Shown piece by piece: positions 8,102 through 31,675 of a DNA stretch of 32,000 nt; position 1 is the first letter of the stretch; every line of letters begins with the position of its first letter. The DNA is taken from contig DIRZ01000002.1 in NCBI GenBank assembly GCA_002421785.1, positions 210,001 to 242,000 on the forward strand, read 5' to 3'. The notes below the pieces were generated by a model. It was not told the origin of the DNA. It saw only the letters and a program-made list of their open reading frames with translations, and made no database searches. Both the position numbers and the translations under genes were made by a program. This DNA comes from Candidatus Saccharimonadota bacterium (GTDB lineage Bacteria; Patescibacteriota; Saccharimonadia; Saccharimonadales; Saccharimonadaceae).

Positions 8102-8108
8102 GCAAGGT

Positions 8109-10021: not shown

Positions 10022-10039
10022 CGGTATACTGGGGATACT

Positions 10040-11923: not shown

Positions 11924-11972
11924 TTTTACTCCTTTGGCTATCCCTTTATTATACCGTATACTAAGGGGAGTT

Positions 11973-13067
11973 ATGCATATCGTTATCGACGCCCGAATTA
12001 TCAACACCTCAACCGGGCGTTATGTCGAACGGCTCCTTACCTACCTTCAGAATATCGATACATCGAACCAATATACTGTTCTCGTCCCTACAAAAGATAA
12101 AGATTTTTGGAAACCAGTTACAAGCAACTTTACCGTCGTATGTATCGATATAAGGAACTACACCCTTGTAGAACAGGTAGAATATAAAAGGATTCTTGAT
12201 TCATTCCGCGCCGACTTAGTGCATTTTTGCATGCCACAACAGCCAGTCCTCTATAGCGGAGCAAAGGTCACTACTATTCACGACCTAACACTCCTTCGCA
12301 CTTGGAATAGTGACAAAAACTGGCTTGCCTACCACCTTAAACAACTTGTTGGGCGATTTGTTTTTCATCATGTGGTCAAAACAAGCGCTCACATCATTAC
12401 CGATTCAGACAATTCAAAAGATGATATCATTGAATTCGATAAGCGCGCTCAGGGGAAGGTGTCGACGATATATTTGGCTGCTGAGACCGAACACCACGCC
12501 ACTCATGAGGTGACACTTCCTTTCAAAAAATACCTTTTATACGTTGGCGCCCAAAGTGATTACAAAAACATTCGAAGGCTTGGCGAGGCTCATCAACTCC
12601 TCCTGTCAGAATACCCAGACCTCGGTTTGGTACTTGTGGGAAAAAAGGGTGTACTTGCTTCCCGAAACGAAGAGTATTTTTCCGCGAGGGAATATAAAAA
12701 TATCCATTTCACCGACTTTATACCAGATGCACAACGCGACTGGCTTTATGAACACTGCGAAGCCTACGTGTTCCCTTCGCTCATGGAGGGTTTCGGTCTG
12801 CCACCCCTGGAAGCCATGACCTATGGCACACCGGTAGTGTCCAGCAATGCCTCGTGCATGCCTGAAATCCTGGGTGATGCGCCTGTCTACTTTGACCCGA
12901 CCGACATAAACGATATGGCGCTAAAAATTGGCGAAGTGCTCGGCGACGAAGCACTCCGCGCACAGATGATTGAGCGTGGGTACCGGCAGGTCGCCAAGTA
13001 TTCATGGGAACGCACCGCTCAGCAAACCCACGACATCTACATGCAGGTACTAAAAAACGCCCAGTAG
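11973..13067 (+). CDS. Glycosyltransferase family 4
   Basis: The N-terminus 'MHIVIDARIINTSTGRYVERLL' is canonical for GT4, and 'YVFPSLMEGFGLPPLEAMTYGTPVVSS' is present. The ATG at 11973 is preceded by AAGGGGAG. TTGGCT-17-TATACT lies 10 nt upstream. Confidence 0.9.
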   Translation: MHIVIDARIINTSTGRYVERLLTYLQNIDTSNQYTVLVPTKDKDFWKPVTSNFTVVCIDIRNYTLVEQVEYKRILDSFRADLVHFCMPQQPVLYSGAKVTTIHDLTLLRTWNSDKNWLAYHLKQLVGRFVFHHVVKTSAHIITDSDNSKDDIIEFDKRAQGKVSTIYLAAETEHHATHEVTLPFKKYLLYVGAQSDYKNIRRLGEAHQLLLSEYPDLGLVLVGKKGVLASRNEEYFSAREYKNIHFTDFIPDAQRDWLYEHCEAYVFPSLMEGFGLPPLEAMTYGTPVVSSNASCMPEILGDAPVYFDPTDINDMALKIGEVLGDEALRAQMIERGYRQVAKYSWERTAQQTHDIYMQVLKNAQ

Positions 13068-16743: not shown

Positions 16744-17018
16744 TATGCTCGCTACCTGTGTACAATCTGTGAAAAACCTTGGGATGAGTCAGCGTATAAC
16801 CAGTGCATGGCAATCCACAGTAATCGTCGCTACTCTACCTAAAGCCACTATGCTGTGGGTAAAACACTTATTTATCGGTGCTCTATCCCCCATTTCATCC
16901 CCCCAGTATTCCACAGGAAATTTCGCCTTTCCACCCCTGATTGAACACTATTTGTACCCAGTTTCCACAGCCCCTATAACTAGTACCACGAATTAAAAAA
17001 GGAGAATAAATAATAATT
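16744..17018. other. Long dnaA-dnaN intergenic region with degenerate DnaA boxes and a terminal AT-rich tract (possible second oriC module/DUE)
   Basis: TGTGGGTAA at 16854-16862 has one mismatch. Three TCCACAG-containing sites lie near 16812, 16907 and 16961, each with two mismatches. The AT-rich tract 'gaattaaaaaaggagaataaataataatt' lies at 16990-17018. Confidence 0.45.
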
Positions 17019-18119
17019 ATGGAACTCTCAGTAACTCAAGAAAATCTGGCTCGTGCGCTCTCGGCAGTCAGTCGCGTGGCAAGTACCAAAGCAGGTTTAC
17101 CAATACTTGGCAACATCCTCTTGCGCACAGAAGGCAATCGACTTTTGGTCGCGGCAACCAACCTTGAAATCGCGTCAACCTACTACATTGGTGCAAAAAT
17201 CGTAAAACAAGGAGCAATCACCCTTCCCGCTCGCCTGGTTAGCGAATTTGTCAGTAGCCTTCCAAAGGGCACGGTAGAGTTATCGACAAAGGGCGCTCAT
17301 ATTACCCTGAGCTCGGGAACCTACCAATCGGTAATTAACGGCGTGGAAGCTGATGACTTCCCTGAGCTGCCATCAATCAACGAAGACGAAGCAGTAAAGT
17401 ATACCATTGCAACCGCTGACTTCAAGCAAGCACTGTCGCAAACAATTATCACGAGTAGTAGCGACTCTACCCGCCCCGTACTGACCGGCGTGTACTGGCA
17501 CTCGGTTGATGGTGCGCTGTACCTAGCAGCCACCGATGGCTACCGGTTGTCTGAGCGCCGGCTTGTCGAAAGCAAGAGCCAGATTGCTGCCATCGTACCG
17601 ACGTCGAGTCTTCAGGAGGTGCTGCGCACGCTCACCGATACCATCGACGAAGTTGAGGTGTTGTTTGACGACACCCAGGTACGATTCCGCGTAGGGGAAG
17701 CCGAGGTCACAAGTCGATTGATTGATGGCAACTACCCAGACTATCGCCAGTTGATTCCAAAAGAATCAGAAACGGTGATTACGCTGAACGCCAGCGAATT
17801 TACTCGAGTCGTTAAAATCGCAGGTTTGTTCGCCCGCGAGTCTGGCGGCAGTATTACCCTTACTGCAGACGCTGAAAAACAAGAACTCAGTATTCATTCC
17901 ATCGCTTCTGAACAGGGCGAGAATACGAGTAGCGCGCCGGCGACAATTACGAATGCTGGCCAAGTGACACTTAACTCACGCTACCTGAGCGAAGCACTTG
18001 GCGTGCTCGATGGTGACACGATTACGTTTCGATTTAGTGGCAAGTTATCACCTACCGTCCTGACGGCAAGCGAAAAAGCCCCCGACTACATGCATATCAT
18101 TATGCCATTAAAGAGTTAG
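17019..18119 (+). CDS. dnaN: DNA polymerase III beta sliding clamp
   Basis: The 366 aa protein begins 'LARALSAVSRVASTKAGLPILGNILL', contains 'TDGYRL' and ends 'MPLKS'. It sits between dnaA and recF. Confidence 0.96.
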   Translation: MELSVTQENLARALSAVSRVASTKAGLPILGNILLRTEGNRLLVAATNLEIASTYYIGAKIVKQGAITLPARLVSEFVSSLPKGTVELSTKGAHITLSSGTYQSVINGVEADDFPELPSINEDEAVKYTIATADFKQALSQTIITSSSDSTRPVLTGVYWHSVDGALYLAATDGYRLSERRLVESKSQIAAIVPTSSLQEVLRTLTDTIDEVEVLFDDTQVRFRVGEAEVTSRLIDGNYPDYRQLIPKESETVITLNASEFTRVVKIAGLFARESGGSITLTADAEKQELSIHSIASEQGENTSSAPATITNAGQVTLNSRYLSEALGVLDGDTITFRFSGKLSPTVLTASEKAPDYMHIIMPLKS

Positions 18120-18120
18120 T

Positions 18121-19170
18121 ATGCACGTCACAGCGCTTCACGTGCGGCAGTTTCGCAATCACAAAGAATACCGATGTCGGCTTGCCGCAACGGTTAATGT
18201 GATATACGGCAGCAACGGAAGTGGCAAGACCTCGCTCCTAGAGGCTGTATGCCTTGCCTATAAGGGTACGTCGTTTCGCGGTCACGATAAAGATATGGTT
18301 CACCGTGGAAGTGAATGGTATCGGGTATCGATGAGTGATACGTCGAATATCGACCGCGTGATTACGTTCGATAACAGGGGCGAACGAGCGCGCAAGCAGT
18401 GGACGGTTGATAGTAAGAACACCGCACGATTACCGCAGAAGTTCCGCTATCCGGTGATACTCTTCACTCCTGACGACCTCCGCCTGATTGACGGTTCACC
18501 AGCTCGTCGCCGTAAATATCTGGATGATATATTGTCGCAACTAAACCCTGCCTACCACACTGCTCTTCGCCGTTACGAGCGCGCGCTCGTGCAGCGCAAT
18601 CGGCTACTTAAAACACGTGACGTTAGCGGTGACCAGCTATTTCCCTGGAATGTTATTTTGAGCGAGTCGGGATCGATGGTAATCTCCACTCGTCGGCAGT
18701 TTGTGAAAACGGTAAATGACTCTATTACTCAAAAATACCAGCAGATTGCGGGTGTAGCGGACGAGGACGAAGTGTCTGTCGAGTATACCGCCAAGGATAC
18801 CTCAGCCCACGCTTTGCTATCGCATTACGAAGATTGTTTTGAGCGTGACAGATTGCAGGGGTACACGACAGCGGGTCCCCATAGGCACGATATTCAGGTG
18901 AGCCTGCGTGGTACGCCGGCAGAAAATCACGCTTCGCGCGGTGAAGTGCGAACAATTATTTTGGCTCTGAAGTATATTGAAGCAGATATGATTGCGGCTC
19001 AGTTTGGTACGTCGCCGCTTATATTGCTCGACGATGTGTTTGGTGAACTGGACAGTACGCGCCAGCAGCACCTTATTGAAACGTTTAATAATCAACAAAT
19101 TATCATTACCTCAACCCATCCGATTGAAGGCATAGATTTTGCTCATCAAATCCGCTTAGCGGAGGGATAG
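18121..19170 (+). CDS. recF: DNA replication and repair protein RecF
   Basis: 'LHVRQFRNH', Walker A 'GSNGSGKTSLLEAV', signature-like 'ASRGEVRTIILALK' and Walker B 'LILLDDVFGELD' are present. The gene starts 1 nt after the dnaN stop. Confidence 0.95.
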   Translation: MHVTALHVRQFRNHKEYRCRLAATVNVIYGSNGSGKTSLLEAVCLAYKGTSFRGHDKDMVHRGSEWYRVSMSDTSNIDRVITFDNRGERARKQWTVDSKNTARLPQKFRYPVILFTPDDLRLIDGSPARRRKYLDDILSQLNPAYHTALRRYERALVQRNRLLKTRDVSGDQLFPWNVILSESGSMVISTRRQFVKTVNDSITQKYQQIAGVADEDEVSVEYTAKDTSAHALLSHYEDCFERDRLQGYTTAGPHRHDIQVSLRGTPAENHASRGEVRTIILALKYIEADMIAAQFGTSPLILLDDVFGELDSTRQQHLIETFNNQQIIITSTHPIEGIDFAHQIRLAEG

Positions 19171-19785
19171 TTCGTTGACGCTCGTCAGGAGCTCACGAGA
19201 AACGGTCGGCGTGTTATCGATGGTGAGGACGATTCGAGGAGCCCCAACAACCTGCCACTGACTATTTACTTTGTGAAGAATGGCGCGGTAGTACCCCTCG
19301 GGATTGCTTGTATCCATGCCGACGGGCGTGAGGATAATACCCGCCCATTCGCCACGCTCAAATAGTGCGAGGTTGTTAACTTCGAATCCGTCGATAACGC
19401 GTGGGTATTTTTGTAGGAGCGCACCCTGTACTGCGCCAAGTTCGGTGGTTGCAAGCTCGCCAAGCTTATCTGTGGAATAGTCTGGTTTTACGGTTAACGC
19501 TATATCGCCCGCTACTACAAAGGGTATTTGAACGTTTGACACGCCATCCCCACTAGGAACGTAGTAGTAGGCTCCTTCTTTGAGGCGGATTGATGAGTCG
19601 TCCGGGGTAAGGGTCTTCAGGCTTGGCATTGCTTCGTCGCTATCTTCGCCAGAGTGAATACTTATGGATTCTACACTTTGGTCGAAAGTGAAGCTGGCGG
19701 TGCGATATGACAGGAGTTCTTGAGCGACAAAATACCCAACAGTCGCGAGAATAAGGATGATAATCGGGGCTATAAAACGTTTCAT
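19156..19785 (-). CDS. Bitopic membrane protein (N-terminal anchor + ~180 aa extracytoplasmic beta-rich domain), last gene of the T4SS-like operon
   Basis: The N-terminus 'MKRFIAPIIILILATVGYFVA' is a single hydrophobic helix. The ATG overlaps the upstream stop as ATGA. The 3' end overlaps the convergent recF 3' end by 15 nt. Confidence 0.7.
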   Translation of the reverse strand: MKRFIAPIIILILATVGYFVAQELLSYRTASFTFDQSVESISIHSGEDSDEAMPSLKTLTPDDSSIRLKEGAYYYVPSGDGVSNVQIPFVVAGDIALTVKPDYSTDKLGELATTELGAVQGALLQKYPRVIDGFEVNNLALFERGEWAGIILTPVGMDTSNPEGYYRAILHKVNSQWQVVGAPRIVLTIDNTPTVSRELLTSVNELSLR

Positions 19786-20405
19786 ACGAATGGATTGCTT
19801 TCATTGATGAAGTTTATTTTGTAATCAACCGGGTTGTACCCCCAGTTTGTGATTTGCGTTACTGCTTCTGTTCGATATACGGCCGGCGCGTCGATAGTGA
19901 CGATAATTGAGTCACCAGTAGGGTCGGCGGGATCGGCGCGATAACCAATAGTGAACAACATGTTTGTATAGGGTAGCTGTTTGGTAATCGGATTTTTTTC
20001 AATGAATGCAGCGCCATTTTCTTCGGCATTAATCCCGGCTACGACTTCAATTGCCGAGTATTCGCCAGTTATCTTATTGTAAAGCTCTGTCGCTTCGGCT
20101 GTTTCGGGCGTTAGCCCGGCGACGAGTGCGGTTTGTGTGCCATCGGTTCGCACATCCAGCTCACCGGTAATAGTGCGAAATCCAGTGTATGATACTCGGT
20201 AAGTATGTTTACCGGGCGTAAGTAGCACCTCTTTCTCCTTTGTGACTTTCCCGTTTATCTCTACGCGTGAACTTGCTGGTGCTACTGCCACGGTGATACG
20301 CTGTTTACCGCTATTTTGCACTTGTGTGTAAACGACATAGCCAATCATTGCTAGGACGATAACGAGAAATCCGATGATGCCGATACGAATGAGTTTACTT
20401 GTCAT
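19782..20405 (-). CDS. Bitopic membrane protein with a PEGA-like beta domain
   Basis: A transmembrane helix 'IRIGIIGFLVIVLAMIGYVVY' is followed by 'ITVAVAPASSRVEINGKV...LLTPGKHTYRVSYTGFRTITGELDV'. That segment follows the PEGA-domain pattern. Confidence 0.7.
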   Translation of the reverse strand: MTSKLIRIGIIGFLVIVLAMIGYVVYTQVQNSGKQRITVAVAPASSRVEINGKVTKEKEVLLTPGKHTYRVSYTGFRTITGELDVRTDGTQTALVAGLTPETAEATELYNKITGEYSAIEVVAGINAEENGAAFIEKNPITKQLPYTNMLFTIGYRADPADPTGDSIIVTIDAPAVYRTEAVTQITNWGYNPVDYKINFINESNPFV

Positions 20406-20416
20406 ATATTAACCAC

Positions 20417-22441
20417 TTAACCCTTCTTTCTATACCATGTTGTGTTGCTTGCGGTAATACTTTCGCTTCCCGCCATCGGTGCGCGCTGGCACAAGGAGGC
20501 GGATGCAATTTTACTACCAAACCCAGGAATGTCCCCTACATAAATGAATGTGTGACCGGGAAGCATGGCTACGTCACCGGGACGCAGAGTGCCGGTGTCA
20601 ATCACATTACCCCTTCCAAGATTCTCCCAATTATTATCAAGCCAAGCCTTTTGGGTTGGGGTTGGGCCACCTTTTCCACTGTGGTTGTATGTGGGGTCCC
20701 AGCCACTATCGGTGACGAGGCGCGTTACAAACCCGCCACAATCGGCACCATCATTTTCTACCGTTACTCCTTTTATCGAGCGGCAGTATGCGATTGTTGC
20801 ACCGACGTATTCGCCAAGTTTTTGTGCCTCTGCAACAGCCTTCACATACGCAGGCATTGACTTGGTATATGGTTTTTTATGATAGGTTGGCCACGCATAC
20901 GCAAGGGTTGTTGCGCTTAGGTCGCCGCCCGAGAAGGTTGTTTCGAAATCTCCGCAGCCACCAGTAGTCGGGTCGTTGTCGACACCCGTTCCAGATGGAT
21001 TCGCATCCTGGATTCCCTTCACAATACCATCAGTGTACTGCTGCAGCTGCTTTTCCGAGAGCTTCGTGCTGCCGTGTGCAAATTCGTTATATGACCAAGG
21101 AACGGTATCGGCAAACAGTGAGATGAGAGGAATATTGCCCTTTGAGAATATCCCGTCACGTCCAAATGATGCGGTTTGTTGGGTGCCACTGGCATCGTCA
21201 CCGACAGAGCGACCCTCTACTGCGGCGCGCGCTTTGATAATTGCCGCATTATATTTCGCACTCTTTTCGGCAGTTGCTGTGTTACTGAAGACTGCCTTCC
21301 GGTCACCGTACTGACGATACGCACCGACACGTTGCGCCCAACCCTGATTGACATCTTTATCTGAGTGGAGGCTTACGCCGAGGACTGCTTTGGCGGCAAT
21401 AGCAGCTTCGGCTTTGGTGCGAAACTTAATTTGCTGGGTGTTGGTGGTTCGGGAGAGGACGACAGTGTACCCAACCTTTTCAAGCTCTGTCTTTACGCGG
21501 TTGGCGACGATGAGCATTTGCTCGGTTTCTGGCGTGTTGTAGCTTTCCGATGTTTTCAAGCCTGTTTTCTCGTCGATGTACGGGCTAATCGCCCCACCAT
21601 GGCCTGGGTCAATGAACACGGTTCCCTTGCTGGTTGCAGAAATCGTTGACACGAGTGTCGATGTTTCTGTGCTTGGTGCTGTGGCGACTGGGGTGGTTGT
21701 GGTGGCGCCAGATTTCATCATTTCGTCATATATCTTTTGCCCAAACCCAGCACGTAATGCCGCGTGAGCATCACTCTGGTCGGCGGGTCGCTCAAAGCTA
21801 CGCAACCATATGTCGGAAGCCTGACGAATGGACGTTGCGTTGTTAATTGCTTGCCATTCTGTCATTCCCGCGGGGCCAACACCGCTTCGTACTTTTCTTG
21901 TGGTGCTTTCTTGGTAGAGGAAGTCGAGCTCAAATGCAAGAAACTTGTCATTTACGGTTACGTCAACTCCGTCTGGTACGTAGCCGTTCGATGATTTTGT
22001 CGCTTTACCATATTGGGGCACGTAGTACTGCGAGAATACATCAGACATGCCCTCTCTCATTTTGTCGACAATCTGCGTACGTCGACTCCCTGTCCACTGT
22101 ACAATGCCATAGCCTCCCGAGGGCCAGGACTGACTATCTTCTTGTCGGAAGGGGCTGAATCCGCTCTCGACCTGGATATTTCCCAAAATACCCGCTGCTT
22201 GCTGATTCGTGAGGCCTTTCCCGACGAGATAGTTCCACATTTTAGCTATATTACCGTCCCCGGTTACGGAAGTGCCGCTCGCGGACATCGTAAGGCACGA
22301 AACGGCGTTTTTGTCATAATACAGAATGTCATTTGACGAGTAAAAATCGAAATCAGTCTCTTCGGCAAAAGCAGGAGTTGCATTTGATACGACAAGAACA
22401 AGCACACTTACAGCTATAGCAAACCTTTTTATATGACGCAT
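20417..22441 (-). CDS. Secreted three-domain peptidoglycan hydrolase (phage-tail-lysozyme-like + Amidase_3-like + NlpC/P60-like)
   Basis: The signal peptide reads 'MRHIKRFAIAVSVLVLVVSNATPAFA'. 'AAGILGNIQVESGFSP...GYGIVQWTGSRR' is the lysozyme-like domain. After a Thr/Ser linker, 'VFIDPGHGG...VSLHSD' is the amidase_3-like domain. The C-terminal 'DCGGFVTRLV...GDVAMLPGHTFIYVG' has a Cys/His NlpC/P60-like arrangement. A GGGGGAGGGGG RBS is present. Confidence 0.85.
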   Translation of the reverse strand: MRHIKRFAIAVSVLVLVVSNATPAFAEETDFDFYSSNDILYYDKNAVSCLTMSASGTSVTGDGNIAKMWNYLVGKGLTNQQAAGILGNIQVESGFSPFRQEDSQSWPSGGYGIVQWTGSRRTQIVDKMREGMSDVFSQYYVPQYGKATKSSNGYVPDGVDVTVNDKFLAFELDFLYQESTTRKVRSGVGPAGMTEWQAINNATSIRQASDIWLRSFERPADQSDAHAALRAGFGQKIYDEMMKSGATTTTPVATAPSTETSTLVSTISATSKGTVFIDPGHGGAISPYIDEKTGLKTSESYNTPETEQMLIVANRVKTELEKVGYTVVLSRTTNTQQIKFRTKAEAAIAAKAVLGVSLHSDKDVNQGWAQRVGAYRQYGDRKAVFSNTATAEKSAKYNAAIIKARAAVEGRSVGDDASGTQQTASFGRDGIFSKGNIPLISLFADTVPWSYNEFAHGSTKLSEKQLQQYTDGIVKGIQDANPSGTGVDNDPTTGGCGDFETTFSGGDLSATTLAYAWPTYHKKPYTKSMPAYVKAVAEAQKLGEYVGATIAYCRSIKGVTVENDGADCGGFVTRLVTDSGWDPTYNHSGKGGPTPTQKAWLDNNWENLGRGNVIDTGTLRPGDVAMLPGHTFIYVGDIPGFGSKIASASLCQRAPMAGSESITASNTTWYRKKG

Positions 22442-22443
22442 AA

Positions 22444-25392
22444 CTACCCCCTCCCCCTACAGTCGGGCGTTGCTTCAGTTACGAGCAGCCCAAGGTTTGG
22501 CGCCTCGTCCGCAGCAAGGAGTGGGAATATGTCTTGTAGGCATACGCCAGCTCCATCATAGCTAAAGTCCATATGCAGGTGAGGGCCGCAGGAGTTTCCA
22601 ACCTCTCCGAGTGTCATAATTTGCTCACCCGCTACTACGGTGCTTTTTGTCGTTACGTTATCGCCGTGCGCGTATGCGATGAGGACCTTCTTCCCTTGGT
22701 ATTCAGACTCAATCATTAAGCCACCATTATTACCAACATTTGGGTCGCCTGTGCACATGTAGCTTGATCGGCCTAATGGGCGCTTTACTACTTTTCCACT
22801 AAGCATTGCGTAGACGGGGGTGCCCTTTGGAAGTGACAGATCAACAGAATTTTCATTTCCCGTAAACGAGCCCGCTCCGTTATGACCTCTTAGGAACTGA
22901 CTTTCATTTTGATCCCAGAATTTTTTATCAACAGGCCACTTCATTTCACCATTTCCGAGCCCCACGCCAACGGCGGCCAAATCGGGCGCAGCTTGACCTG
23001 TAGTACTTGAGGTATATCCGTTTTCCATAGTATCGTTAACGCGTTGATCGATGTAGTGAACGTACATATCAACGGTTGTTTGTTCTTGGACTGTGAGGCC
23101 TGTCGTTTTGTCGGTAATAAAGCAGCTCTCGCCCATATCTACTGTCGAGTCTTCCCCGGTACTGCCAATCGGCACCTGGCGATCGATACAGTTTTTTACA
23201 AAGTCAATGTACGCCCCGACGGGATCGCCAGATGTTTCGTCAATAAGACCCTGACTGAGGAGTCGCGTGTTAATTGCATTAGGGTCGTCACCTGCGAGCT
23301 CAAGAGGGATGCCGAAGATTGGATTGCAGAAAGGATCGGTGGCAATGCCAATTGCTACGTAGTCAGGATCTTTACATTCCTGGAAGTCTGATTCGTCTGC
23401 GCTTGCCTGCGGGGTGAGGTTCGCGAAGGTAGAACCTACGATACTTGTAGGAATAGATGAAAGTTGAAGAACGGTACTGGGTGTACTTGCAAAAAATGGC
23501 GCAAAGCGACTATAGATACTACCTAGGAACGTATTTGGGTTGCTTGCGTCAAACGGACTGTGGGTCGCCTGGTCAAGTGTGCGGTATTCCTGTGCGATAA
23601 CTTCGGTTTCGCTTGCATAGCGCGCAGCCTGCTTGGCGCGCAGTGGCGCGTTGCCACCACCCTGTGCGAGCTGGGAGTGGAGGTGTCCTGAACCAGACAC
23701 GATAAAGTTCCCTGCCGTTTCACCGACAGTGTTTTTGTCGACTAATCGGCCAGCGATCATATCAGCCAAAAGTGCAGGCAAGAGGAGCTGTGCGGCAAAG
23801 GTGGCTGCAGCGATGCCCGCCTGAACGCCAATTTTTGCAAGGCTGATGGCTTGTCCACCTGGGATGATCCAGAGGAGTACACCCACGACGAATGATGCGC
23901 CCTGGACGAAGAAATTATTGTTGATCTTGCAGGTTGAATCGGCAGTGCGAGTGTTGCCGCCGAGTAACCCGAGGACGGTTGCAAGAACGCCATCTAACTT
24001 ACCGGTTGAGCCTGCACCTACAAGTGCCTGCATGGCGTTTGTGTCGCTCGCTATTCCCTTGTCGCCAAATGCGGTATAGCGGTAGCCAAAGGAGTCGGTC
24101 GCGGCTTTGGTGAGGACAGTCTGTCCGTCGACCTGCGTGCGGTAGGTTTGGGTGAGCATTGTCCCGAGGTAGGATACATCGTCTGCCTTAGCATCACCGG
24201 CTTTTATCATACTGGCGGTTGTCAGGAATATCATGGCAAAACGCGCCATCTGGGCACCTCTAATCACCTTTGCGCCCATAGAAACGGCTTTGAACATACC
24301 ATAGACGGTACAGGCATTATCAATCACCCCGGTTACCTTGATAATGCTGGTTGCGCTTCCAGCCAGATTGCTGAAATCGGCGGCGCCGAGCTCTCGCATG
24401 GCTTTAGATGTTTGCGACTCGGCACCATCGCCGGCCTCACTCGCGGCTTTGTCGAGATCTGACTGTGTTCCGGATTTTTTGTTTTGACACTCCGCATCAC
24501 AGTTCGGGTCATCCGTGACATCAATGCTACCCGTGGAGCGGCCATTTCTTGTATCTTCTTCGATTCGCTTGAGCCTGGTTTCATCGCTAGCACTATCGGC
24601 GTCGGTGAACGGTGCGCGTTTGGAAATGCGTAGCTTGGTAGCGATTTTATTGAACACACTGTCGGTGAAGCCGGCGAATTTAGGGTTAAACCCTTGTTTT
24701 ACCGCAAGGTTGAACCTAGTATTTGTTTTCATTTCGGACACAAAATTTGCCGGTGCGATTGGCTTACCCTCGAACGACATGGAAGTGATTTTGTTTCTGC
24801 CGGTGATGGCGGTTTTTGAGTCAGTCTCCACCTCTATTCCTGCCTTTTTGAAGTTAGCAATTTCTTTGTCGGAGAACGTTGCATATTTACACCGAATTGA
24901 TACTGGTGAACATATGCCCGTAGTGGTATTTTTGATCTTCGCATCAAGAATTTTTTTGGTGCGAATATCCATGGTTGTTAGCTGATAATTGAATTTTTCA
25001 TTAATTTTTTCGGCGAGATTAACGATGAGCAGGCCTGGCCCGCCAAAAAAGCTCGTTACGCCCGCTAAGCCAAGGACAAGGGAGATGATAATACCAACAG
25101 GGCCGCCACTTTTTTTGAGGCTGAATTTTCCACCGCCACGTGACTTACGCCCGGTAACGTTATTCATCCATGACCCCGACGTGCCGTTTTCTTGTTCATC
25201 AACAACGTCCGAGGCTTGCTTCGCACGTTCGATCGCCGCATCTTCGTTGGACGAGTCTGCGGTTTGGTCATAGTTATTTACTATGTCGTTAAAGCTACTT
25301 TTTTCGGCGTCACTGAGTTGCTTGGAATTATTGAAGACATCGTCGTAGTGCTCGTCAATTCGGCTATTGTCGTTTTTTTGCAGCGTTGGCAT
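22444..25392 (-). CDS. Large membrane protein with a C-terminal M23 (LytM-type) peptidase domain
   Basis: The N-terminus is acidic and disordered. Transmembrane segments occur near aa 98-125 and near aa 500-550. The C-terminal 'VDLSLPKGTPVYAMLSGKVV...IAYAHGDN...GPHLHMDF' matches the M23 core motifs. Confidence 0.85.
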   Translation of the reverse strand: MPTLQKNDNSRIDEHYDDVFNNSKQLSDAEKSSFNDIVNNYDQTADSSNEDAAIERAKQASDVVDEQENGTSGSWMNNVTGRKSRGGGKFSLKKSGGPVGIIISLVLGLAGVTSFFGGPGLLIVNLAEKINEKFNYQLTTMDIRTKKILDAKIKNTTTGICSPVSIRCKYATFSDKEIANFKKAGIEVETDSKTAITGRNKITSMSFEGKPIAPANFVSEMKTNTRFNLAVKQGFNPKFAGFTDSVFNKIATKLRISKRAPFTDADSASDETRLKRIEEDTRNGRSTGSIDVTDDPNCDAECQNKKSGTQSDLDKAASEAGDGAESQTSKAMRELGAADFSNLAGSATSIIKVTGVIDNACTVYGMFKAVSMGAKVIRGAQMARFAMIFLTTASMIKAGDAKADDVSYLGTMLTQTYRTQVDGQTVLTKAATDSFGYRYTAFGDKGIASDTNAMQALVGAGSTGKLDGVLATVLGLLGGNTRTADSTCKINNNFFVQGASFVVGVLLWIIPGGQAISLAKIGVQAGIAAATFAAQLLLPALLADMIAGRLVDKNTVGETAGNFIVSGSGHLHSQLAQGGGNAPLRAKQAARYASETEVIAQEYRTLDQATHSPFDASNPNTFLGSIYSRFAPFFASTPSTVLQLSSIPTSIVGSTFANLTPQASADESDFQECKDPDYVAIGIATDPFCNPIFGIPLELAGDDPNAINTRLLSQGLIDETSGDPVGAYIDFVKNCIDRQVPIGSTGEDSTVDMGESCFITDKTTGLTVQEQTTVDMYVHYIDQRVNDTMENGYTSSTTGQAAPDLAAVGVGLGNGEMKWPVDKKFWDQNESQFLRGHNGAGSFTGNENSVDLSLPKGTPVYAMLSGKVVKRPLGRSSYMCTGDPNVGNNGGLMIESEYQGKKVLIAYAHGDNVTTKSTVVAGEQIMTLGEVGNSCGPHLHMDFSYDGAGVCLQDIFPLLAADEAPNLGLLVTEATPDCRGRG

Positions 25393-25394
25393 CG

Positions 25395-27233
25395 CTAGCT
25401 ACCCCCTCCAGAAAGCGGCTGTAGTGGCGTTTGTGGGTTGGTCGTAATGAGCCCCGTTTCGGTTTCGCTGGCGATAATCTGGACATGGACGTGATTCTGG
25501 CCTGCGAAGAACAAGCCCTGACCAACTGGGAAGTTCGATAGGCGCTTGCGCTCTTCTTCGGTAAGCTTGAATACGTCACCCAGCACGTCCACGGCGCTCG
25601 AAGACTGCTTTAATAAGAGCTGCATTGAGGAGTTGGCGACAATTGCTCGTCCCATCTTGCTACCCATAAAGTCTTCAACGTCCTGCGTGATGGTAGTGAG
25701 CCCCAAGAAGTACTTACGTGCGCGCTTAGCGAGGCTGAACAAGAAATTTGCACTGTCATCGTATTTCATGAGTTGCCATGCCTCGTCCACGATGAGCATA
25801 CGCTTGCGCTGGACAGTGCGGGTAATGTTCCAAATGTGGCTGAGTACAATGTACATGGCAACAGGACGAAGTTCGTCTTCGAGGTCACGAATGTTGAACA
25901 CGACCATACTATTGTTGATGTCGATATTGCTCTGCTGGCTAAAGATTCCCGCGAATGTACCACTGGTGTATTTGCGCAGACGTTGCGCGAGCGCTGGACC
26001 TGTTCCGCCCATATGAAGCAGTGTGTCATAGAGGTCGCTAATAGTTGGCGGCATACTGTTGTGAGTCAGTGGGTCGCTCGTGATGCCAGCGCGGGCGTAG
26101 GTGTCGATCAGTCCCTGGTCGAGGTCTGCTTCTTCGGCGGGCGTGAGTGCGGACATCGCTTGCCCGGCTGCAGTCATCTGTGTGCCACCGAGCATAAGGC
26201 GGAGTAGTCCGTGTAGTGTGACAAGGTTGGCGCGGAGGGCGTCGTCAGCTTCTTCGCTATCAATGACTTTCGGTAAGTCGAATGGGTTAATCCGGGTGTC
26301 GCTATTCAGGCTTAGTCGGATATAGCTCCCCCCTACTGCATCGCTCAGTTTCTGATATTCATTTTCGGGGTCGATAATCAGGATGTCCGAACCGGTCATC
26401 ATGCTGCGGAGTGCCTCGAGCTTTACGGTGAACGATTTACCTGCGCCGGACTTTGCGAACACCACCATGTTGGCGTTTTCTAGGCTGAACCGGTCGAAAA
26501 TTACCAGGCCGTTGTTGTGCATATTGATACCATACAGCACGCCCTTTTCCTGGGTTAAGTCGGCGCTCGTGAATGGGAAGCTTGTGCTGATAGCGCCGGT
26601 GTTCATGTTGCGGCGAATTTGCAACTGGTCGGACATTTGTGGGATGGTGCTATTGAGGCCCTGTTCCTGTTGGCTGCTGGCAGTTTTGCTGTATACGAGC
26701 TGCTGGCCGAACAGGGTTTCCAGGCTGTGCTGGACAAACCCAAGTTCTTCCAGGCTGTCTGCGTATACCGTGACGTACAAACCATAGCGGAAGAAGCGCT
26801 CCGCGCCAACCTGGAGCTGATCACGAAGCTCCTCGGCATCAGCCAGTGCGGCTTCACGCGCGGGGTCGCGAGTTCGGCCCTTTTCGCTACTGATCGACAT
26901 GTCGGCTTCGAGCTGCGTTACCTTTTTGCGAAGGTTATTCAACACGACCTCTGTTTCAACAGGGTAAATAAACATGCTAATGTCGAGCACCTGGTCGATA
27001 TTAATGAGACCACTAAGCCAACCGGTATAGAGTTCACGGGGGTAGCCGTAAATATACATGGTGCGGCCGTATTTAGTGCCGATGCGGAAGTGACTGCTGT
27101 GAATTTCGAGGCTACTTGGTGCGATGAGATCGCGAAGTGTCGTCATGCCCTTTAGGAACGCCTGCTCTACTTCTGCCTGTTCGCGGGCGCGCTGTTCGGC
27201 GGCAAGACCGACGGCGTCAAGTTTCTTCGCCAT
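25395..27233 (-). CDS. virB4: VirB4/TraE/ConE-family type IV secretion ATPase
   Basis: 'YGRTMYIYGYPRELYTGWLSGLINID..LDISMFIYP' is the Gram-positive VirB4 N-domain pattern. Walker A 'FAKSGAGKSFTVK' and Walker B 'RMLIVDEAWQLM' are present, followed by 'GLTTITQDVEDF'. Confidence 0.9.
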   Translation of the reverse strand: MAKKLDAVGLAAEQRAREQAEVEQAFLKGMTTLRDLIAPSSLEIHSSHFRIGTKYGRTMYIYGYPRELYTGWLSGLINIDQVLDISMFIYPVETEVVLNNLRKKVTQLEADMSISSEKGRTRDPAREAALADAEELRDQLQVGAERFFRYGLYVTVYADSLEELGFVQHSLETLFGQQLVYSKTASSQQEQGLNSTIPQMSDQLQIRRNMNTGAISTSFPFTSADLTQEKGVLYGINMHNNGLVIFDRFSLENANMVVFAKSGAGKSFTVKLEALRSMMTGSDILIIDPENEYQKLSDAVGGSYIRLSLNSDTRINPFDLPKVIDSEEADDALRANLVTLHGLLRLMLGGTQMTAAGQAMSALTPAEEADLDQGLIDTYARAGITSDPLTHNSMPPTISDLYDTLLHMGGTGPALAQRLRKYTSGTFAGIFSQQSNIDINNSMVVFNIRDLEDELRPVAMYIVLSHIWNITRTVQRKRMLIVDEAWQLMKYDDSANFLFSLAKRARKYFLGLTTITQDVEDFMGSKMGRAIVANSSMQLLLKQSSSAVDVLGDVFKLTEEERKRLSNFPVGQGLFFAGQNHVHVQIIASETETGLITTNPQTPLQPLSGGGS

Positions 27234-28120
27234 TATTGCGCTCCTCCTTGTGGCTCTGGTTGAGTGACATCACCCTGCCCTTTGCGCACATACATACTTG
27301 TGACGTTATCGAAATTCCCGAGCGGTTCCCGGACGGCAGTGTCGGGGTTATAGATGTTATAGTACAACTCACCGAGCTCTTTTGTGGTCAGCTGGACTGC
27401 CTGTACGCCCACTTGGTTGAGGCCGCTCACAACCGAGTCGACGCGGTTCTTGATCTCTTCCTTAGCTTTTTCGTATGTCGCCTTGTCAATCTTGGTTATA
27501 GTGTTGGCTTTAGCGCCACCACCGAATATTTTTCCGAAGAAGCCTTTGCCTTGGTCAACTACTGTGTTGGCGTCGCCTGCGGGGAAAAACGGTACGACCA
27601 CAAAGAAGCTTTTATCCATAATGTTTGCTTCTTGGGACAAGACATCAATAAACTGGATGTAGTCATCCATAAGTACGTTTAGGAGCATGTTGTCCTGATT
27701 GCGGCGAATTTCTTCCAGCCGGTCTAGGTACGGGCCGATATCGACGCGCTGCGAGCGGATGAATATTTGAATGGGAAAATATAGTGCGTTAAGGAAGTTT
27801 TGGTAGCTAAATTCCACACCCTCGCGTTCACGCGAGCTCATCAGGTCGAAGTTGATGGATTTACAGGCGATGACAGCACGGAAGCTGCCGTCGGCCATAA
27901 TAATCATGCCATCGCGTAGCTCGGAAAGGAGCAGGCTGTTCTGGGTAGATACGCCGCGCTTTTCGGGGGTTGACGAAGGATTGCTAGCAGCTTGACCGGC
28001 AGGCGCCACACCAGAACCCATGGGGGGCTGAAACTGCTGCTCGGGGCCAGGAAAAGCACCAGCGGGGGCGGCTGGTTGTTGCGGTATCTGATTGGTTGGC
28101 TGCTGATTATTTGGCGGCAC
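27233..28120 (-). CDS. Hypothetical protein with a P/Q-rich N-terminus and a core resembling a VirB4/TraC N-terminal domain, with no ATPase motifs
   Basis: The GTG start has an AAGGGGAG RBS 6 nt upstream. The stop overlaps the virB4 ATG as TAATG. 'LSELRDGMIIMADGSFRAVIACKSINFDLMSSREREGVEFSYQNFLNALYFPIQIFIRSQRVDIGPYL' follows the same pattern as T4SS ATPase N-domains. No Walker motifs are present. Confidence 0.65.
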   Translation of the reverse strand: MPPNNQQPTNQIPQQPAAPAGAFPGPEQQFQPPMGSGVAPAGQAASNPSSTPEKRGVSTQNSLLLSELRDGMIIMADGSFRAVIACKSINFDLMSSREREGVEFSYQNFLNALYFPIQIFIRSQRVDIGPYLDRLEEIRRNQDNMLLNVLMDDYIQFIDVLSQEANIMDKSFFVVVPFFPAGDANTVVDQGKGFFGKIFGGGAKANTITKIDKATYEKAKEEIKNRVDSVVSGLNQVGVQAVQLTTKELGELYYNIYNPDTAVREPLGNFDNVTSMYVRKGQGDVTQPEPQGGAQ

Positions 28121-28154
28121 TTCCCACTCCCCTTTTAGTTAACTATTACCCACA

Positions 28155-29156
28155 CTAGCGAAGCGAGATAATCACTTCCTCGCCGTCATCTTCGTCATGA
28201 CGACGCTGAATTCGGCTTGCCTCACGCGCAATTGTCTCGATAGATAAATCAGTATTACTTGCAAGATTGATTATATCAGGTGACAGGGCTGTTTCGCTAG
28301 TGGTTGGCGGTTGTTTTGCGGGTTCTGGTTGCGGAGGCGAGGGCTGTACTGGAGGCAGTGGTGCTGGCTGTGGACGGGGTTGTACTAGCTGGCCACTCGC
28401 GCTCAAAGGATTAATGACAGTTTGGTGGATTTCTGTGGGATATGGATTGAACAGAACCGTCGGGTCGGTGGTAGTGGTAGCTGCAGGTGGCGTGGTATAG
28501 GCAGAATACTGAGCTGCAGTGGTTGGAATTGTGTATTGAGCTGCTGGCGGAGTGCTGGGGGTTGGGTTCTGGATGCGGTTCATCATTTCCTGCCTACGGC
28601 GTTGGTCGGCCTGAGTAATCATTGTGTCCAGATTTTGTGCAATTCCCCCGTTGTCGTCGAGCACGTCTTCGGTTTGGCGCGCGGCAAAGAACGCATCGGT
28701 ATACATGGCATTATCGACAAATGGTTCGGCGGCATGACGAATTGCCCACCCTTGGGTGTCGGCAATGTCGGCCAGGTAACTGAGGCGCCGTTCGGCTTCA
28801 GTTTGTGATATATCCTTTGCCCGCTGCACCTCGACAACCTTCGGTGCGGTGATTTCTACGAGTGATTCGATACCATCAGGAATCCATAGGCGACGACGGG
28901 GTTTGAGGTAGAACGACACAATCGCTGCAAGGTAGATTTCCATTGGCTGATCTTTGCGTAGGGGTAACGCAAGCGCCCCGAAGAACAAAATAATCGGCAT
29001 TGGGATAATAATGAATCCGATAAAGATTTGCGACAGCCCCCAGGCGAGCGCCATCGCCATCGCAACGATAATCAGGTAGACGAACTGGCGAAAACTAAAC
29101 GGGCCAATCAGCTTATCGTCGGCTTCTACATCCTGGGCTACTTTATATACTGCCAT
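28155..29156 (-). CDS. PrgI/VirB3-like membrane protein with a long C-terminal extension
   Basis: 'VAQDVEADDKLIGPFSFRQFVYLIIVAMAMALAWGL' is followed by a second adjacent helix, which is the PrgI/VirB3-like hairpin. A ~250 aa tail follows and includes a Pro/Thr/Gln-rich tract. Confidence 0.7.
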   Translation of the reverse strand: MAVYKVAQDVEADDKLIGPFSFRQFVYLIIVAMAMALAWGLSQIFIGFIIIPMPIILFFGALALPLRKDQPMEIYLAAIVSFYLKPRRRLWIPDGIESLVEITAPKVVEVQRAKDISQTEAERRLSYLADIADTQGWAIRHAAEPFVDNAMYTDAFFAARQTEDVLDDNGGIAQNLDTMITQADQRRRQEMMNRIQNPTPSTPPAAQYTIPTTAAQYSAYTTPPAATTTTDPTVLFNPYPTEIHQTVINPLSASGQLVQPRPQPAPLPPVQPSPPQPEPAKQPPTTSETALSPDIINLASNTDLSIETIAREASRIQRRHDEDDGEEVIISLR

Positions 29157-29184
29157 ACTTTTATAATACTCTACCTATGTGATG

Positions 29185-31626
29185 CTAGGGTGTAGGAGGC
29201 GGCGCGCTAGATGGATGATTCGGATTTTGAGAAGGCGTATTCATATAGCGATGAGTCTCTCCGATATTATCAAATTGTGCCCGGTATGCAGCCGTAACTT
29301 TCCCTTTCAGCGCAGGCGTAGAGTCAACATTGTTGATTGCTCCAGTCAGGTTGTCCATACCCTCGTGGGTAACTAGGCCCGATCCAGCAACGCCCGCAAG
29401 GTACCTTGTCGCACTTTCGCTGTGTACAACATCTTCAGCACCAATACTGCCCGAGTTAATATTCTCAGCAGCAGATGCAGCCAATCCCGCTGCGTCAAGT
29501 GCTCGGCTTTTGCCGTTTTCATCGGTACCCGAAGCCATGATTTTTGCTCCGATCCCCGCGCCGTATATCTTCTGATCGCCTTTTGCATAGACACCCTCTG
29601 AAACACGTTTCTTTAGGCGTTGCGATAGCCCGCCAGATGCTTCGACGACCGCTCGGCGCTCATCAAAACTTCCTTTTGACATGATATGCTCAATGGCTGC
29701 AGCCTGTTCAGCTTCAGACAGTCCGCCACTCTGAAACTGCTTGAGAACATCCGCTGTGCCCTTCTCGCCAAAACCGATGCCCGCCGCTTTGACCTGTTCA
29801 CCAAACTCCGCTTCCTCGAGAGATGCAGCTTGTGTGGCGAGCTTGCCAGAATAATTGCCCCCACCGACCTTACCTAGGACACCCCTGCGTATACTTCCCT
29901 CTCCGATCTTCCGCGCTCTCTTGATATCGCGTTGTTGTTTGCGATATTTCCAAGCATCTTGGACAGGTGCGGTGCGACGGTTTGCGGTATTCTTGGCGGC
30001 ACCGCCAACCCGGCCGGTCGCTTTATCTCCCCAGCCTTGCATCTTTGCGCCCATCTTGCCAGTTGCGGCCAGGGCGCCTTTGAGCATTCCGGGCACTACG
30101 AAGAGCGGCAGTGCAGTGGCGCCAAGCGCGACGATCTTCATGAATGGTTCGGATGATGTGGACAGAATTGCTGCAGCCAATGCGCTTGCGCCGAATACCG
30201 CACTAACAACAGGAAATAGCATAAGTAAGCTAAAGAATAGTTTCGACCACTTTTTAAACAACGACTCGGTATTTGGTAACAGATAGGCTACAAACGCGAG
30301 GGGTGCGATGACGATTAACAGCACAATGAGTGCCTGCCTGGCCAGTAGAATAAATGCGATGAGTGCAAGTGCGAAGAATGCCGCAAGGAGAACCGGTACA
30401 GATACGGCAAGTAGAAGTGCCAGAACGGTCCCAATTCCAAGTGCACCGGCGAGGATTTGACCTATTAATTCGGCCCATCCACCAGAATCAGCCTTCGTGG
30501 TAATAGTAATCGAACCCCCAAGCTGGTCGAATATCGCCTTTATGCCGTATCCCGCAATATTACTCAGGTCGACTGCCAGCTGGCATATAAAGAACGAAAT
30601 ATTTACCAAAATGGCGGCAATGATAATTTTTGGTAACATGCGCTTAATGCCATAGTTACTAATCCCAGCACTTGTTACCTGAGAATAGATAATAATCAAG
30701 AAGGCGATCACAAACATCACGTTGGCATAGTTCTTAAACACGTCCCAAGCTTTGTATGTTGTCGAATCTCTAGTGAATAGCTCCGGTTTTACTACCAGCG
30801 TTCCCGCAATAAAATCGTATAACCCATCATTTAAGCTGGCGATAAAGTTCATGACAGGACAAACAATCCAGCCAATCGAGTCAACATTACACTGTGACTC
30901 TTTGGTCGCGTCCGCTCCCACGACTGGTTTAGCGTCAAGCTTTCCGGTTGATATCTGGCTGGCACAGCTTAATACATTGGGCGTGGCGGTGTCTAAGTTT
31001 TCTTCGCCAGCTACGCAGTTTTTCCATGCTTCAGAACACTGGTCGCTAGTGAGCATACTGCCAGCAGTAGTTACTTTTGCACACGCCTGTATTGCTTCGC
31101 ATCGCGCCTTGAGGTAGGTGTCGGTCATCGCGGAGCAGTCTTGTTTGGTTATGTCTGTCGCGCTAATATCGAGTGGCTTAGTGGCGGCCGCGGTGTTCGC
31201 GATTGTGACGGTACCCTTGAATGCGCTGGGTGAACAATATTTTACTTCGCGCTCGCCAGTACTCGCCAGGCGATCGCTTAGTGTTCCCTTTCCGGCGTTG
31301 CTTGCATCTACTGTAAGGGTGACACTATATGTACAAATAACGTCAATCGTGTCGGTTATACCCGAGTCCCCCATTAATCGGCTATTGCTGAACGTCGGTC
31401 GACTGCCACTCAGTACAAGGGTACCTCCGTCGCCGGCAACATCTTCTCCGCCAGGCCCAAAATAGCTGTATTGAATGAGAATTTGACTACTGTTTGCCCA
31501 CTTGAGTGACATATTTGACACGGCGAACGCAGAAGGAATGAGTGGGCCGATGATATTCAACAACGAGCTTAATGCAAGGACAGTAATCGTCGTAAATAGC
31601 CCAACCCGTTTTTTTCCTATTAACAT
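29185..31626 (-). CDS. VirB6/TrbL-like polytopic membrane protein with a Cys-rich ectodomain and a long hydrophilic C-terminal domain
   Basis: It has a signal/anchor 'MLIGKKRVGLFTTITVLALSSLL', a ~230 aa ectodomain with 10 Cys, at least 6 hydrophobic helices (aa ~300-540) and a ~270 aa Gly/Ala/Lys-rich tail. The ATG at 31626 is preferred to the GTG at 31641, because a CATAAT -10-like box lies 6 nt upstream. Confidence 0.75.
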   Translation of the reverse strand: MLIGKKRVGLFTTITVLALSSLLNIIGPLIPSAFAVSNMSLKWANSSQILIQYSYFGPGGEDVAGDGGTLVLSGSRPTFSNSRLMGDSGITDTIDVICTYSVTLTVDASNAGKGTLSDRLASTGEREVKYCSPSAFKGTVTIANTAAATKPLDISATDITKQDCSAMTDTYLKARCEAIQACAKVTTAGSMLTSDQCSEAWKNCVAGEENLDTATPNVLSCASQISTGKLDAKPVVGADATKESQCNVDSIGWIVCPVMNFIASLNDGLYDFIAGTLVVKPELFTRDSTTYKAWDVFKNYANVMFVIAFLIIIYSQVTSAGISNYGIKRMLPKIIIAAILVNISFFICQLAVDLSNIAGYGIKAIFDQLGGSITITTKADSGGWAELIGQILAGALGIGTVLALLLAVSVPVLLAAFFALALIAFILLARQALIVLLIVIAPLAFVAYLLPNTESLFKKWSKLFFSLLMLFPVVSAVFGASALAAAILSTSSEPFMKIVALGATALPLFVVPGMLKGALAATGKMGAKMQGWGDKATGRVGGAAKNTANRRTAPVQDAWKYRKQQRDIKRARKIGEGSIRRGVLGKVGGGNYSGKLATQAASLEEAEFGEQVKAAGIGFGEKGTADVLKQFQSGGLSEAEQAAAIEHIMSKGSFDERRAVVEASGGLSQRLKKRVSEGVYAKGDQKIYGAGIGAKIMASGTDENGKSRALDAAGLAASAAENINSGSIGAEDVVHSESATRYLAGVAGSGLVTHEGMDNLTGAINNVDSTPALKGKVTAAYRAQFDNIGETHRYMNTPSQNPNHPSSAPPPTP

Positions 31627-31675
31627 ATAGCTATTATGCACAATTGCTTACGGTTTGGAAACACTTATGCATAAT

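Follow-up and report, generated by a model that had tools for sequence, protein, structure and literature searches.

The stretch of DNA analysed here (hereafter the window; 32,000 nucleotides of contig DIRZ01000002.1, positions 210,001 to 242,000) comes from a Saccharibacterium and carries, on its minus strand, an operon for a type IV secretion system (T4SS) in which two adjacent genes code for predicted peptidoglycan hydrolases. The first codes for a polytopic membrane protein of 982 amino acids (aa) that ends in an M23 metallopeptidase domain, and the second for a 674-aa protein that starts with a signal peptide and chains a Phage_lysozyme2 glycosidase, an Amidase_3 domain and a Cys/His domain of NlpC/P60-CHAP type (Table 1). 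The 982-aa protein has 130 homologues, and each of these that carries a source name comes from Saccharibacteria; the named homologues of the 674-aa protein are also all Saccharibacterial, and the source of the best one (99% identity) is 'Candidatus Saccharibacteria bacterium 32-49-10'. Since recF, dnaN, dnaA, rnpA, yidC and jag flank the operon on one side, the window corresponds to the replication origin region. The operon (19156-31641) is closely packed, with overlaps of 1-4 nt or gaps of 2-11 nt at the junctions from the TrsD-like gene to the operon end, 2 nt between the 982-aa and 674-aa genes, and 28 and 34 nt at the two upstream junctions. It was assigned to a T4SS because the gene of a VirB4-like ATPase marks it; this ATPase matches NF045971 with 372 bits (E 5.9e-111, cut-off 325) and also matches Pfam P-loop_TraG.

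Table 1. The two hydrolase genes, their domains and the neighbouring T4SS genes (positions within the window)
Feature	Position	Strand	Basis or remark
982-aa polytopic membrane protein	22444..25392	-	ORF; T4SS operon
N-module, residues 1 to ~800	22993..25392	-	conserved; homology to most relatives ends at 790-800
C-terminal hydrolase cassette, residues 801-982	22447..22992	-	M23 metallopeptidase in window copy
Peptidase_M23 match, residues 847-947	22552..22854	-	Pfam PF01551
674-aa Sec-exported three-domain peptidoglycan hydrolase (predicted)	20417..22441	-	ORF, domain matches
Signal peptide, residues 1-26, AFA/EE cleavage motif	22364..22441	-	read from sequence
Phage_lysozyme2 glycosidase domain, residues 64-241	21719..22252	-	Pfam PF18013
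Amidase_3 (N-acetylmuramoyl-L-alanine amidase) domain, residues ~272-483	20993..21628	-	Pfam PF01520 and fold
Divergent NlpC/P60-CHAP-type papain-fold cysteine peptidase domain, residues ~507-674	20420..20923	-	family profile, fold
VirB4-like ATPase, CD1110 family, 612 aa	25395..27233	-	NCBIfam NF045971
TrsD/TraC-like protein, 295 aa	27233..28120	-	NCBIfam TrsD 1.5e-6
PrgI (VirB3-like) protein	28155..29156	-	Pfam PrgI 2e-10
818-aa polytopic membrane protein	29185..31641	-	seven hydrophobic segments
207-aa small membrane-anchored protein	19782..20405	-	single-pass; weak PEGA-like match
209-aa small membrane-anchored protein	19156..19785	-	single-pass; ends operon next to recF

The 982-aa protein has hydrophobic segments at residues 99-117 and 494-543, and alignments of the family show conserved Cys residues in its predicted outside loops. 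Its counterpart is the gene downstream of virB4 in two related contigs (L018 and L019) and in the published gene table of Southlakia epibionticum. The N-terminal part of the protein (N-module) had no match in Pfam or NCBIfam, and its C-terminal part matched Peptidase_M23 with E 1.6e-11 (44.7 bits, cut-off 28.7). Within this domain H909, H938 and H940 align to the catalytic and zinc histidines of LytM, and H837, D851, H909, H938 and H940 are proposed as the zinc and catalytic residues. A role of the 982-aa protein as a VirB6/TrbL subunit was also considered and was rejected, with an hhalign probability of 0.1 against its TrbL_3-like 818-aa neighbour.

The 674-aa protein begins with MRHIKRFAIAVSVLVLVVSNATPAFA, which, with cleavage before EE, reads as a Sec signal peptide, so that the protein would be exported first into the producer's own envelope. 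It has a single hydrophobic segment (4-22), modelled as a helix (2-19) that is followed by a disordered stretch, and it has no lipobox. The full-length AlphaFold model consists of three domains joined by linkers at 245-271 and 484-506. The first one matches nearly all of the Phage_lysozyme2 profile (positions 2-140 of 140; E 1.7e-27, 96.7 bits, cut-off 28.2) and superimposes on phi29 gp13 (PDB 3csr) with a template modelling (TM) score of 0.72 and a root-mean-square deviation of 3.6 A by Foldseek. Glu92 aligns with Glu45, the catalytic residue of gp13 (E 6.8e-5; GNIQVES / GNMQSES), and is invariant among 24 homologues. The second domain matches Amidase_3 at residues 275-385 (E 1.3e-10, 42.1 bits, cut-off 27). 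This Pfam match spans only positions 1-92 of the 174 in the profile, and the fold search retrieved whole Amidase_3 structures (Ami1/Rv3717, CwlV, CwlD, AmiA, AmiB, AmiC and LytH) over 212-263 columns with probability 1.00 and TM 0.56-0.70 on the target. In the alignment with 4rn7, H281, E305 and H359 fall on its His-Glu-His zinc site, and E453, by its place on the final core strand, would be the catalytic Glu. None of these four residues varies among 24 full-length homologues with identities down to 44%. The spacing from H359 to E453 is long and holds a conserved helix (388-409, with R405 and E409); we do not claim it as an autoinhibitory helix of the AmiB type, since model and fold fit a standard Amidase_3 helix and a small beta insertion. 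The same three-domain layout, including Amidase_3, was found in about 30 protein clusters.

The third domain of the 674-aa protein is more divergent. Within its family, 21 of 30 homologous domains match PF00877 (best E 1.7e-6), and one homologue assigned to NlpC/P60 by Pfam (P0055) matches the window domain at 6e-8. The family profile also matches E. coli Spr/MepS (E 5e-4), placing DCGGF on the catalytic DCSGF and GHT on the catalytic His, and the two residues aligned in this way are the invariant Cys568 and His630. For a third catalytic residue, the strand 'KIASAS' (equivalent to 'FVHAS' of Spr) offered no conserved His, Asn or Gln; S647 and E660 are conserved in the domain. The domain model has a predicted local distance difference test score of 90 (pLDDT-90) and finds as its best PDB fold Tae1, an amidase of type VI secretion systems (T6SS). 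Additionally, it matches phage proteins named as peptidoglycan-binding, peptidoglycan hydrolase, CHAP or NlpC/P60, and the best of the phage matches, to an unnamed protein, reached E 1.1e-6 and TM 0.60. The S. epibionticum counterpart is listed as 'Cysteine proteinases' at the same position by structure-based annotation (PMC10633639, supplementary table). Because the window copy stays below the PF00877 cut-off and the isolated domain had no match when PDB was searched by sequence, it was placed in the NlpC/P60-CHAP papain-fold superfamily as one of its divergent members.

These results confirm what an earlier reading of the same DNA made from the letters alone (the sequence-only reading) had observed, and they support its interpretation in part. 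The 982-aa and 674-aa open reading frames (ORFs) lie on the minus strand where it had placed them, and the VirB4 CD1110, PrgI and TrsD-like neighbours confirm the T4SS operon around them. The M23 end of a membrane protein was recovered by Pfam and by the hydrophobic segments, the signal peptide by its cleavage motif and hydrophobic stretch, and the phage-lysozyme-like and Amidase_3 domains by matches above the Pfam cut-offs and by fold; for the Cys/His NlpC/P60-like domain the evidence is weaker and all points in one direction. Thus three of the four domains pass the curated Pfam cut-offs, and the catalytic residues (E92; H281/E305/H359/E453; C568/H630; D851/H909/H938/H940) are present and conserved in all four. 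The strength of the profile matches and the conservation of the active-site residues set both genes apart from chance ORFs.

The C-terminus of the 982-aa protein is an exchangeable hydrolase cassette. We compared the protein with its 120 relatives among the matches listed, to which homology runs up to residue 790-800 and in most cases ends there. Tail classes were assigned from precomputed Pfam labels, extra Pfam scans and hidden Markov models built from labelled examples. Counting the window's own protein (n = 121), the tails were VanY/M15B-like in 30, M23 in 21, a second M15-like type with LAS motif in 17, NlpC/P60 in seven, CHAP in four, EEP followed by M23 in four, VanY with M23 in two, HExxH in two and Amidase_3 in one; four were unclassified and 29 had no tail, a class that may hold truncated gene calls and in which complete tail-less genes were confirmed in loci L004 and L009. 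A neighbour-joining tree of 118 N-modules requires 42 or more changes of tail type, compared with 74.5 on average (minimum 64) when the tail labels are shuffled on the same tree. The closest relative (P0071) has an N-module that is 95% identical over ungapped columns (93% in the BLASTP alignment) and carries a VanY-like tail in place of M23, with a SxHxxGxSxD...H motif and a Pfam VanY match at E 0.0011. Its contig, L018, shows the recF/dnaN synteny of the window and is 83% identical in nucleotides on both flanks, and window positions 22370-22990, that is, the cassette and about the first 24 codons of the next gene, do not align to it. Two further independent contigs (L019 and L020) share the VanY-type arrangement. 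As in polymorphic, toxin-like cassettes, close relatives thus have a conserved N-terminal part and unrelated C-terminal domains. Composition gave no signature of recent import for the cassette (guanine-plus-cytosine (GC) content 0.514, compared with 0.501 in the N-module), and no immunity gene was found next to it, the 674-aa gene following after 2 nt and the replaced segment holding no extra ORF. This exchange of cassettes is undescribed in the literature searched, and the C-terminal hydrolase of the membrane protein as an exchangeable cassette is what appears to be new at this locus.

Some of the rarer tails deserve mention by themselves. The C-terminal 200 aa of P0136 and P0149 hold a HExxH motif (LLIHEYIHSMD) without any Pfam match and may represent an undescribed metallopeptidase cassette. 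In some other relatives the membrane scaffold and the peptidase tail are separated by one EEP domain or two (endonuclease/exonuclease/phosphatase; PF03372) (L011 7788-12302, L013 8001-12530, L014/L015 7938-12509 and L017 71-3124; proteins P0080, P0083, P0086 and P0186), and an EEP-like domain is additionally present in the secreted partner of L013. For organisms unable to make nucleotides, it is intriguing that a T4SS component could bear a nuclease or phosphoesterase that faces outward.

Modularity was also evident in the secreted partner. With a 10-sequence alignment we found, in 16 further Saccharibacteria genomes, 16 loci that reach past the membrane-protein gene, and in all 16 the gene with the N-module is followed by a gene for a secreted protein. 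The glycosidase of this partner is Phage_lysozyme2 in 14 loci and SLT in one, and none was detected in L009; its C-terminal peptidase is of NlpC/P60-like type, Peptidase_C39_2 or M23, and in L003 only the lysozyme is present. Optional inserts are Amidase_3 in the window and GH3, GDSL-like or EEP domains in other loci, and GH73 is the insert of the S. epibionticum partner (PMC10633639, supplementary table). Short members of the 674-aa family (~420-460 aa) consist of a glycosidase and a cysteine peptidase, which is the CwlT layout. The hydrolase pair is syntenic with virB4 at every locus examined. Among the inserts, L016 (11356-13731) has a GH3 domain before the lysozyme (E 3.8e-44; the family of NagZ-type N-acetylglucosaminidases) and L008 (11237-13651) a weak GDSL lipase/acylhydrolase-like region at the same place; these modules hint at further processing of wall fragments or at wall modifications. 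A rule of complementarity, with one metallopeptidase and one cysteine peptidase per locus, was considered and rejected, as L017 has M23 twice and L016 has cysteine peptidases twice.

In ICEBs1, CwlT combines an N-terminal muramidase with a C-terminal NlpC/P60 endopeptidase. The 674-aa protein resembles it in being exported and in having a glycosidase followed by a cysteine peptidase, and differs from it by the Amidase_3 domain between the two and by a cysteine peptidase that scores below the Pfam NlpC/P60 cut-off. PrgK of pCF10 is likewise a multidomain wall hydrolase in a monoderm T4SS operon, is required by its system and brings together metallopeptidase-type, glycosidase and cysteine-peptidase domains (LytM, 'SLT' muramidase and CHAP). 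In contrast to the window, where the domains are split over two proteins, PrgK is one membrane-anchored protein; furthermore, the glycosidase of the window belongs to another family (Phage_lysozyme2), Amidase_3 is added and the catalytic residues are conserved. Only the muramidase of PrgK is active, the LytM domain being degenerate and metal-free and the CHAP domain having no hydrolytic activity, and both downregulate the muramidase (PMC11323569).

The closest likeness is to S. epibionticum, with which the window was compared by gene position, published annotation and shared families. There the T4SS cluster SEML1_0006-0019 is essential for growth on the host, as determined by transposon sequencing (Tn-seq; Wang et al. 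2023, PMC10633639), and this system has no relaxase and no coupling protein and is needed only in epibiotic life (PMC10633639). Genes SEML1_0001-0011 and the window share the order dnaA, dnaN, recF, two small genes, hydrolase, membrane protein, virB4, trsD and prgI. According to the supplementary tables of PMC10633639, SEML1_0007 (1113 aa) ends in an M15B or 'Hedgehog/DD-peptidase' fold and SEML1_0006 (643 aa) has a GH73 glucosaminidase, Phage_lysozyme2 and a cysteine proteinase fold; both genes are essential. As in the window, a large membrane protein with a peptidase tail is followed by a three-domain secreted hydrolase, which makes four hydrolase domains in each pair, but the tail is M15B instead of M23, and the extra domain is GH73 before the lysozyme instead of Amidase_3 after it. 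In this regard, 'peptidase and lysozyme homologues immediately downstream of virB4', near dnaA, have been noted by Quinonero-Coronel et al. (PMC12102498), who treat the S. epibionticum pair as 'other' glycosidases/peptidases possibly filling the VirB1 role and not as VirB1 homologues. The comparison with CwlT and PrgK drawn in the sequence-only reading was fair. Its claim that the pair holds more domains than known systems stands in so far as four are present, and the margin is small, with three predicted in PrgK and four in SEML1_0006/0007; because the latter pair carries four domains of another set, the four-domain type of locus is already on record. Its four wall-cutting activities are predictions from conserved domains and catalytic residues and, as PrgK illustrates, domains are not equal to activities. 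Its further step, from more cutting than a channel through the cell's own wall would need to a partner or host wall as the target, is an inference that goes beyond these data.

All these data make it rather probable, in our view, that the two genes provide the peptidoglycan-cutting kit of a chromosomal, origin-proximal T4SS of a Saccharibacterium. The pair would represent VirB1-type wall hydrolases of this T4SS, and it is part of a Saccharibacteria-wide modular locus. The 982-aa protein would be a Saccharibacteria-specific polytopic membrane subunit whose extracytoplasmic C-terminus carries the hydrolase cassette, and the Sec-exported 674-aa protein would follow the CwlT/PrgK pattern with Amidase_3 inserted. 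Going by family-typical specificity, the lysozyme would cut the glycan strand, the amidase would strip stem peptides off N-acetylmuramic acid (MurNAc), the NlpC/P60-type domain would cut inside the stem peptide and M23 would cut the cross-links. With M23 tethered to the membrane by its scaffold, and the secreted 674-aa enzyme presumably recruited, as PrgK is recruited by PrgL, the enzymes would act locally at the T4SS site, and both proteins would open the wall there, giving the T4SS and its pilus a way across. Since the T4SS sits at the zone of contact with the host, the enzymes would probably act on the host wall too; such targeting of the host wall is plausible.

Several points weigh against this interpretation. 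Catalysis in both protein families is predicted from sequence, and in the PrgK precedent only one of three predicted domains proved to be active (PMC11323569). The topology of the 982-aa protein was derived from hydropathy alone. In its M23 domain the canonical HxxxD histidine is absent, His210 of LytM being aligned with Glu847 while D851 is kept, and His837 is a candidate zinc ligand by complementary conservation only. The Cys/His domain of the 674-aa protein reaches 12.6 bits against PF00877 (E 0.14, cut-off 23), and its fold match to Tae1 is weak (E 0.04, TM 0.35-0.44, 13% identity). Furthermore, the essentiality found in S. epibionticum fits action on the producer's own wall and on the host wall alike.

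A further-reaching explanation is that the hydrolase modules form a dedicated, rapidly exchanged tool for breaching the host wall, comparable to a phage tail-tip lysin. It would serve mainly to perforate the thick wall of the host where the cell is attached, letting the T4SS or its pilus get to the host membrane, and both the swappable cassette and the accessory domains of the secreted partner would be matched to the host's peptidoglycan chemotype and help to set host range. We put it forward tentatively, as a possibility that is more doubtful than probable. The frequent changes of cassette type on the N-module tree, and the replacement of one type by another at clean DNA breakpoints between close relatives, would be unexpected for enzymes that act on an unchanging wall of their own. 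The tail-tip 'morphogenesis protein 1' of phi29, gp13 (lysozyme and M23), which enters walls from outside, belongs to the same two Pfam families as the window pair, and a PHROG profile of gp13 size (phrog_11037, 365 residues) matches both window genes. In gp13, however, both domains are in one soluble virion protein attacking from outside, whereas in the window they are in two cellular proteins of a secretion system, and the first M23 motif differs between gp13 and the window protein. The best PDB folds of the Cys/His domain are interbacterial T6SS amidase effectors; Tae1/Tse1 of Pseudomonas aeruginosa is a papain-fold peptidoglycan amidase, but its likeness to the domain is weak, its delivery route is unlike that of the window system and no immunity gene is recognisable in the window. 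Additional arguments in favour of host breaching are the T4SS of S. epibionticum, which has neither relaxase nor coupling protein and is essential in epibiotic life alone (PMC10633639), and the GH3, GH73, GDSL or EEP modules that have been added in some relatives. Against it, the Sec signal of the 674-aa protein leads into the producer's envelope, 29 of the 121 family members have no tail cassette, the source organism has no known host, and the wall chemistry of Saccharibacteria may itself vary by lineage. A role directed at the host alone is called into question by Sec export, the tail-less quarter of the family and the PrgK precedent; action on the host wall is favoured, though not demonstrated, by the rapid turnover of cassettes, the domain types shared with gp13 and the Tae1-like fold.

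Less probable still, and in our opinion unlikely, is that the set resembles PrgK in being catalytic only in part, with one domain, probably the lysozyme, cutting the wall and the others regulating, dimerising or binding it; the M23 tail could then activate the neighbouring Amidase_3, as EnvC, NlpD and ActS do. Besides the PrgK precedent (PMC11323569), this would be in line with the replacement of the canonical M23 histidine, with a weak NCBIfam match (E 1.5e-4, 21 bits, cut-off 375) to ActS, which activates amidases, and with M23 and Amidase_3 being encoded side by side in the window. The conservation of the M23 tails argues in the other direction. Across the family's 27 M23 tails there is no exception at D851, H909 or H938 and a single one at H940, which 26 tails have. 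Moreover, all 16 tails without the canonical histidine have a His 6-25 residues upstream of the Asp (His837 in the window), and at this upstream position the 11 tails with the canonical histidine have a gap in nine, Arg in one and His in one. The two histidines are therefore mostly mutually exclusive, unlike in degenerate LytM domains, and this complementary pattern suggests a functional M23 zinc site with a longer spacer, of which His837 may be part. A ligand at such a longer spacing occurs in LasA-type M23A enzymes. In the other three domains, too, every residue proposed to be catalytic is invariant down to 44% identity, and most of the M23-tailed relatives have no Amidase_3 partner that the tail could activate. 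Lastly, we give very little credit to the explanation that the two genes code for autolysins with a housekeeping role in growth, division or budding and only happen to lie beside T4SS genes, because although Amidase_3, M23 and NlpC/P60 are classic division and growth hydrolases and the genes stand among core genes at the replication origin, the pair is translationally packed into the T4SS operon, keeps its synteny with virB4, has an N-module that is found only in T4SS context, and belongs to a family whose swaps of catalytic type between close relatives would be unexpected for such enzymes.

The role of the Saccharibacterial T4SS was called 'completely unknown' in a 2024 perspective (PMC11665869), and its wall-cutting components have hitherto been only table entries and one sentence. 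If the peptidoglycan-cutting kit favoured here serves only the producer's own wall, it would have an ordinary VirB1-type function of unusual elaboration; if it is matched to the host, its modules would open a path for T4SS uptake from, or delivery to, the host. The question of own wall or host wall is experimentally approachable through cassette exchange.

Regarding the rest of the operon, the 818-aa protein probably is a TrbL/VirB6-like subunit. The window copy had no Pfam match, and the gene at the equivalent position in L019 (886 aa) matches PF19590 TrbL_3, as does a second, cut-off gene further upstream in that contig (995-aa product). Because of these two TrbL_3 genes, there seem to be two VirB6-like proteins beside the hydrolase-bearing membrane protein. 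VirB4 function is divided between two genes with a 1-nt overlap (27233-28120 and 25395-27233): the 295-aa protein has a weak match to the N-terminal part of VirB4 profiles, and the alignment of the 612-aa ATPase begins at position 172 of the 752-residue CD1110 model. A split or frameshifted virB4 was nevertheless rejected, since the two-gene arrangement is kept in L019 and in S. epibionticum and the 295-aa ORF is a conserved TrsD/TraC-like partner. The L019 homologue of this protein matches PF26593 TraC-like, and a TrsD homologue adjoining VirB4 has been reported (PMC12102498).

The pair of small membrane-anchored proteins of 207 and 209 aa recurs in L018 and L020. In S. epibionticum their places are taken by two essential genes, SEML1_0005 (PEGA-like) and SEML1_0004 (PMC10633639). 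The two small proteins could serve as scaffold, regulator or protection against the hydrolases. When the window was aligned with L019 (19909-25800 against 17000-19197), nucleotide identity was 70-76% in the hydrolase genes and 90% in recF-dnaN, so that the genes for wall cutting change faster than the housekeeping genes beside them.

Outside the operon, a surface-glycan gene cluster lies beside the origin (8-13067) and includes genes for glycosyltransferases of families GT4 and GT2, for a methyltransferase and for an ABC exporter of Wzm/Wzt type that has the C-terminal glycan-binding domain of Wzt, as well as for a GDP-mannose 4,6-dehydratase and two further epimerases/dehydratases. A succinyl-CoA-synthetase-like pair is encoded at 8109-10021 on the plus strand, ATP-grasp_2 with CoA-ligase being followed by CoA_binding with CoA-ligase. 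It lies in a GC-richer stretch (0.54 compared with 0.50) and is unexpected in a lineage reported to be without a tricarboxylic acid cycle; the pair may represent an ADP-forming acyl-CoA synthetase for substrate-level ATP synthesis.

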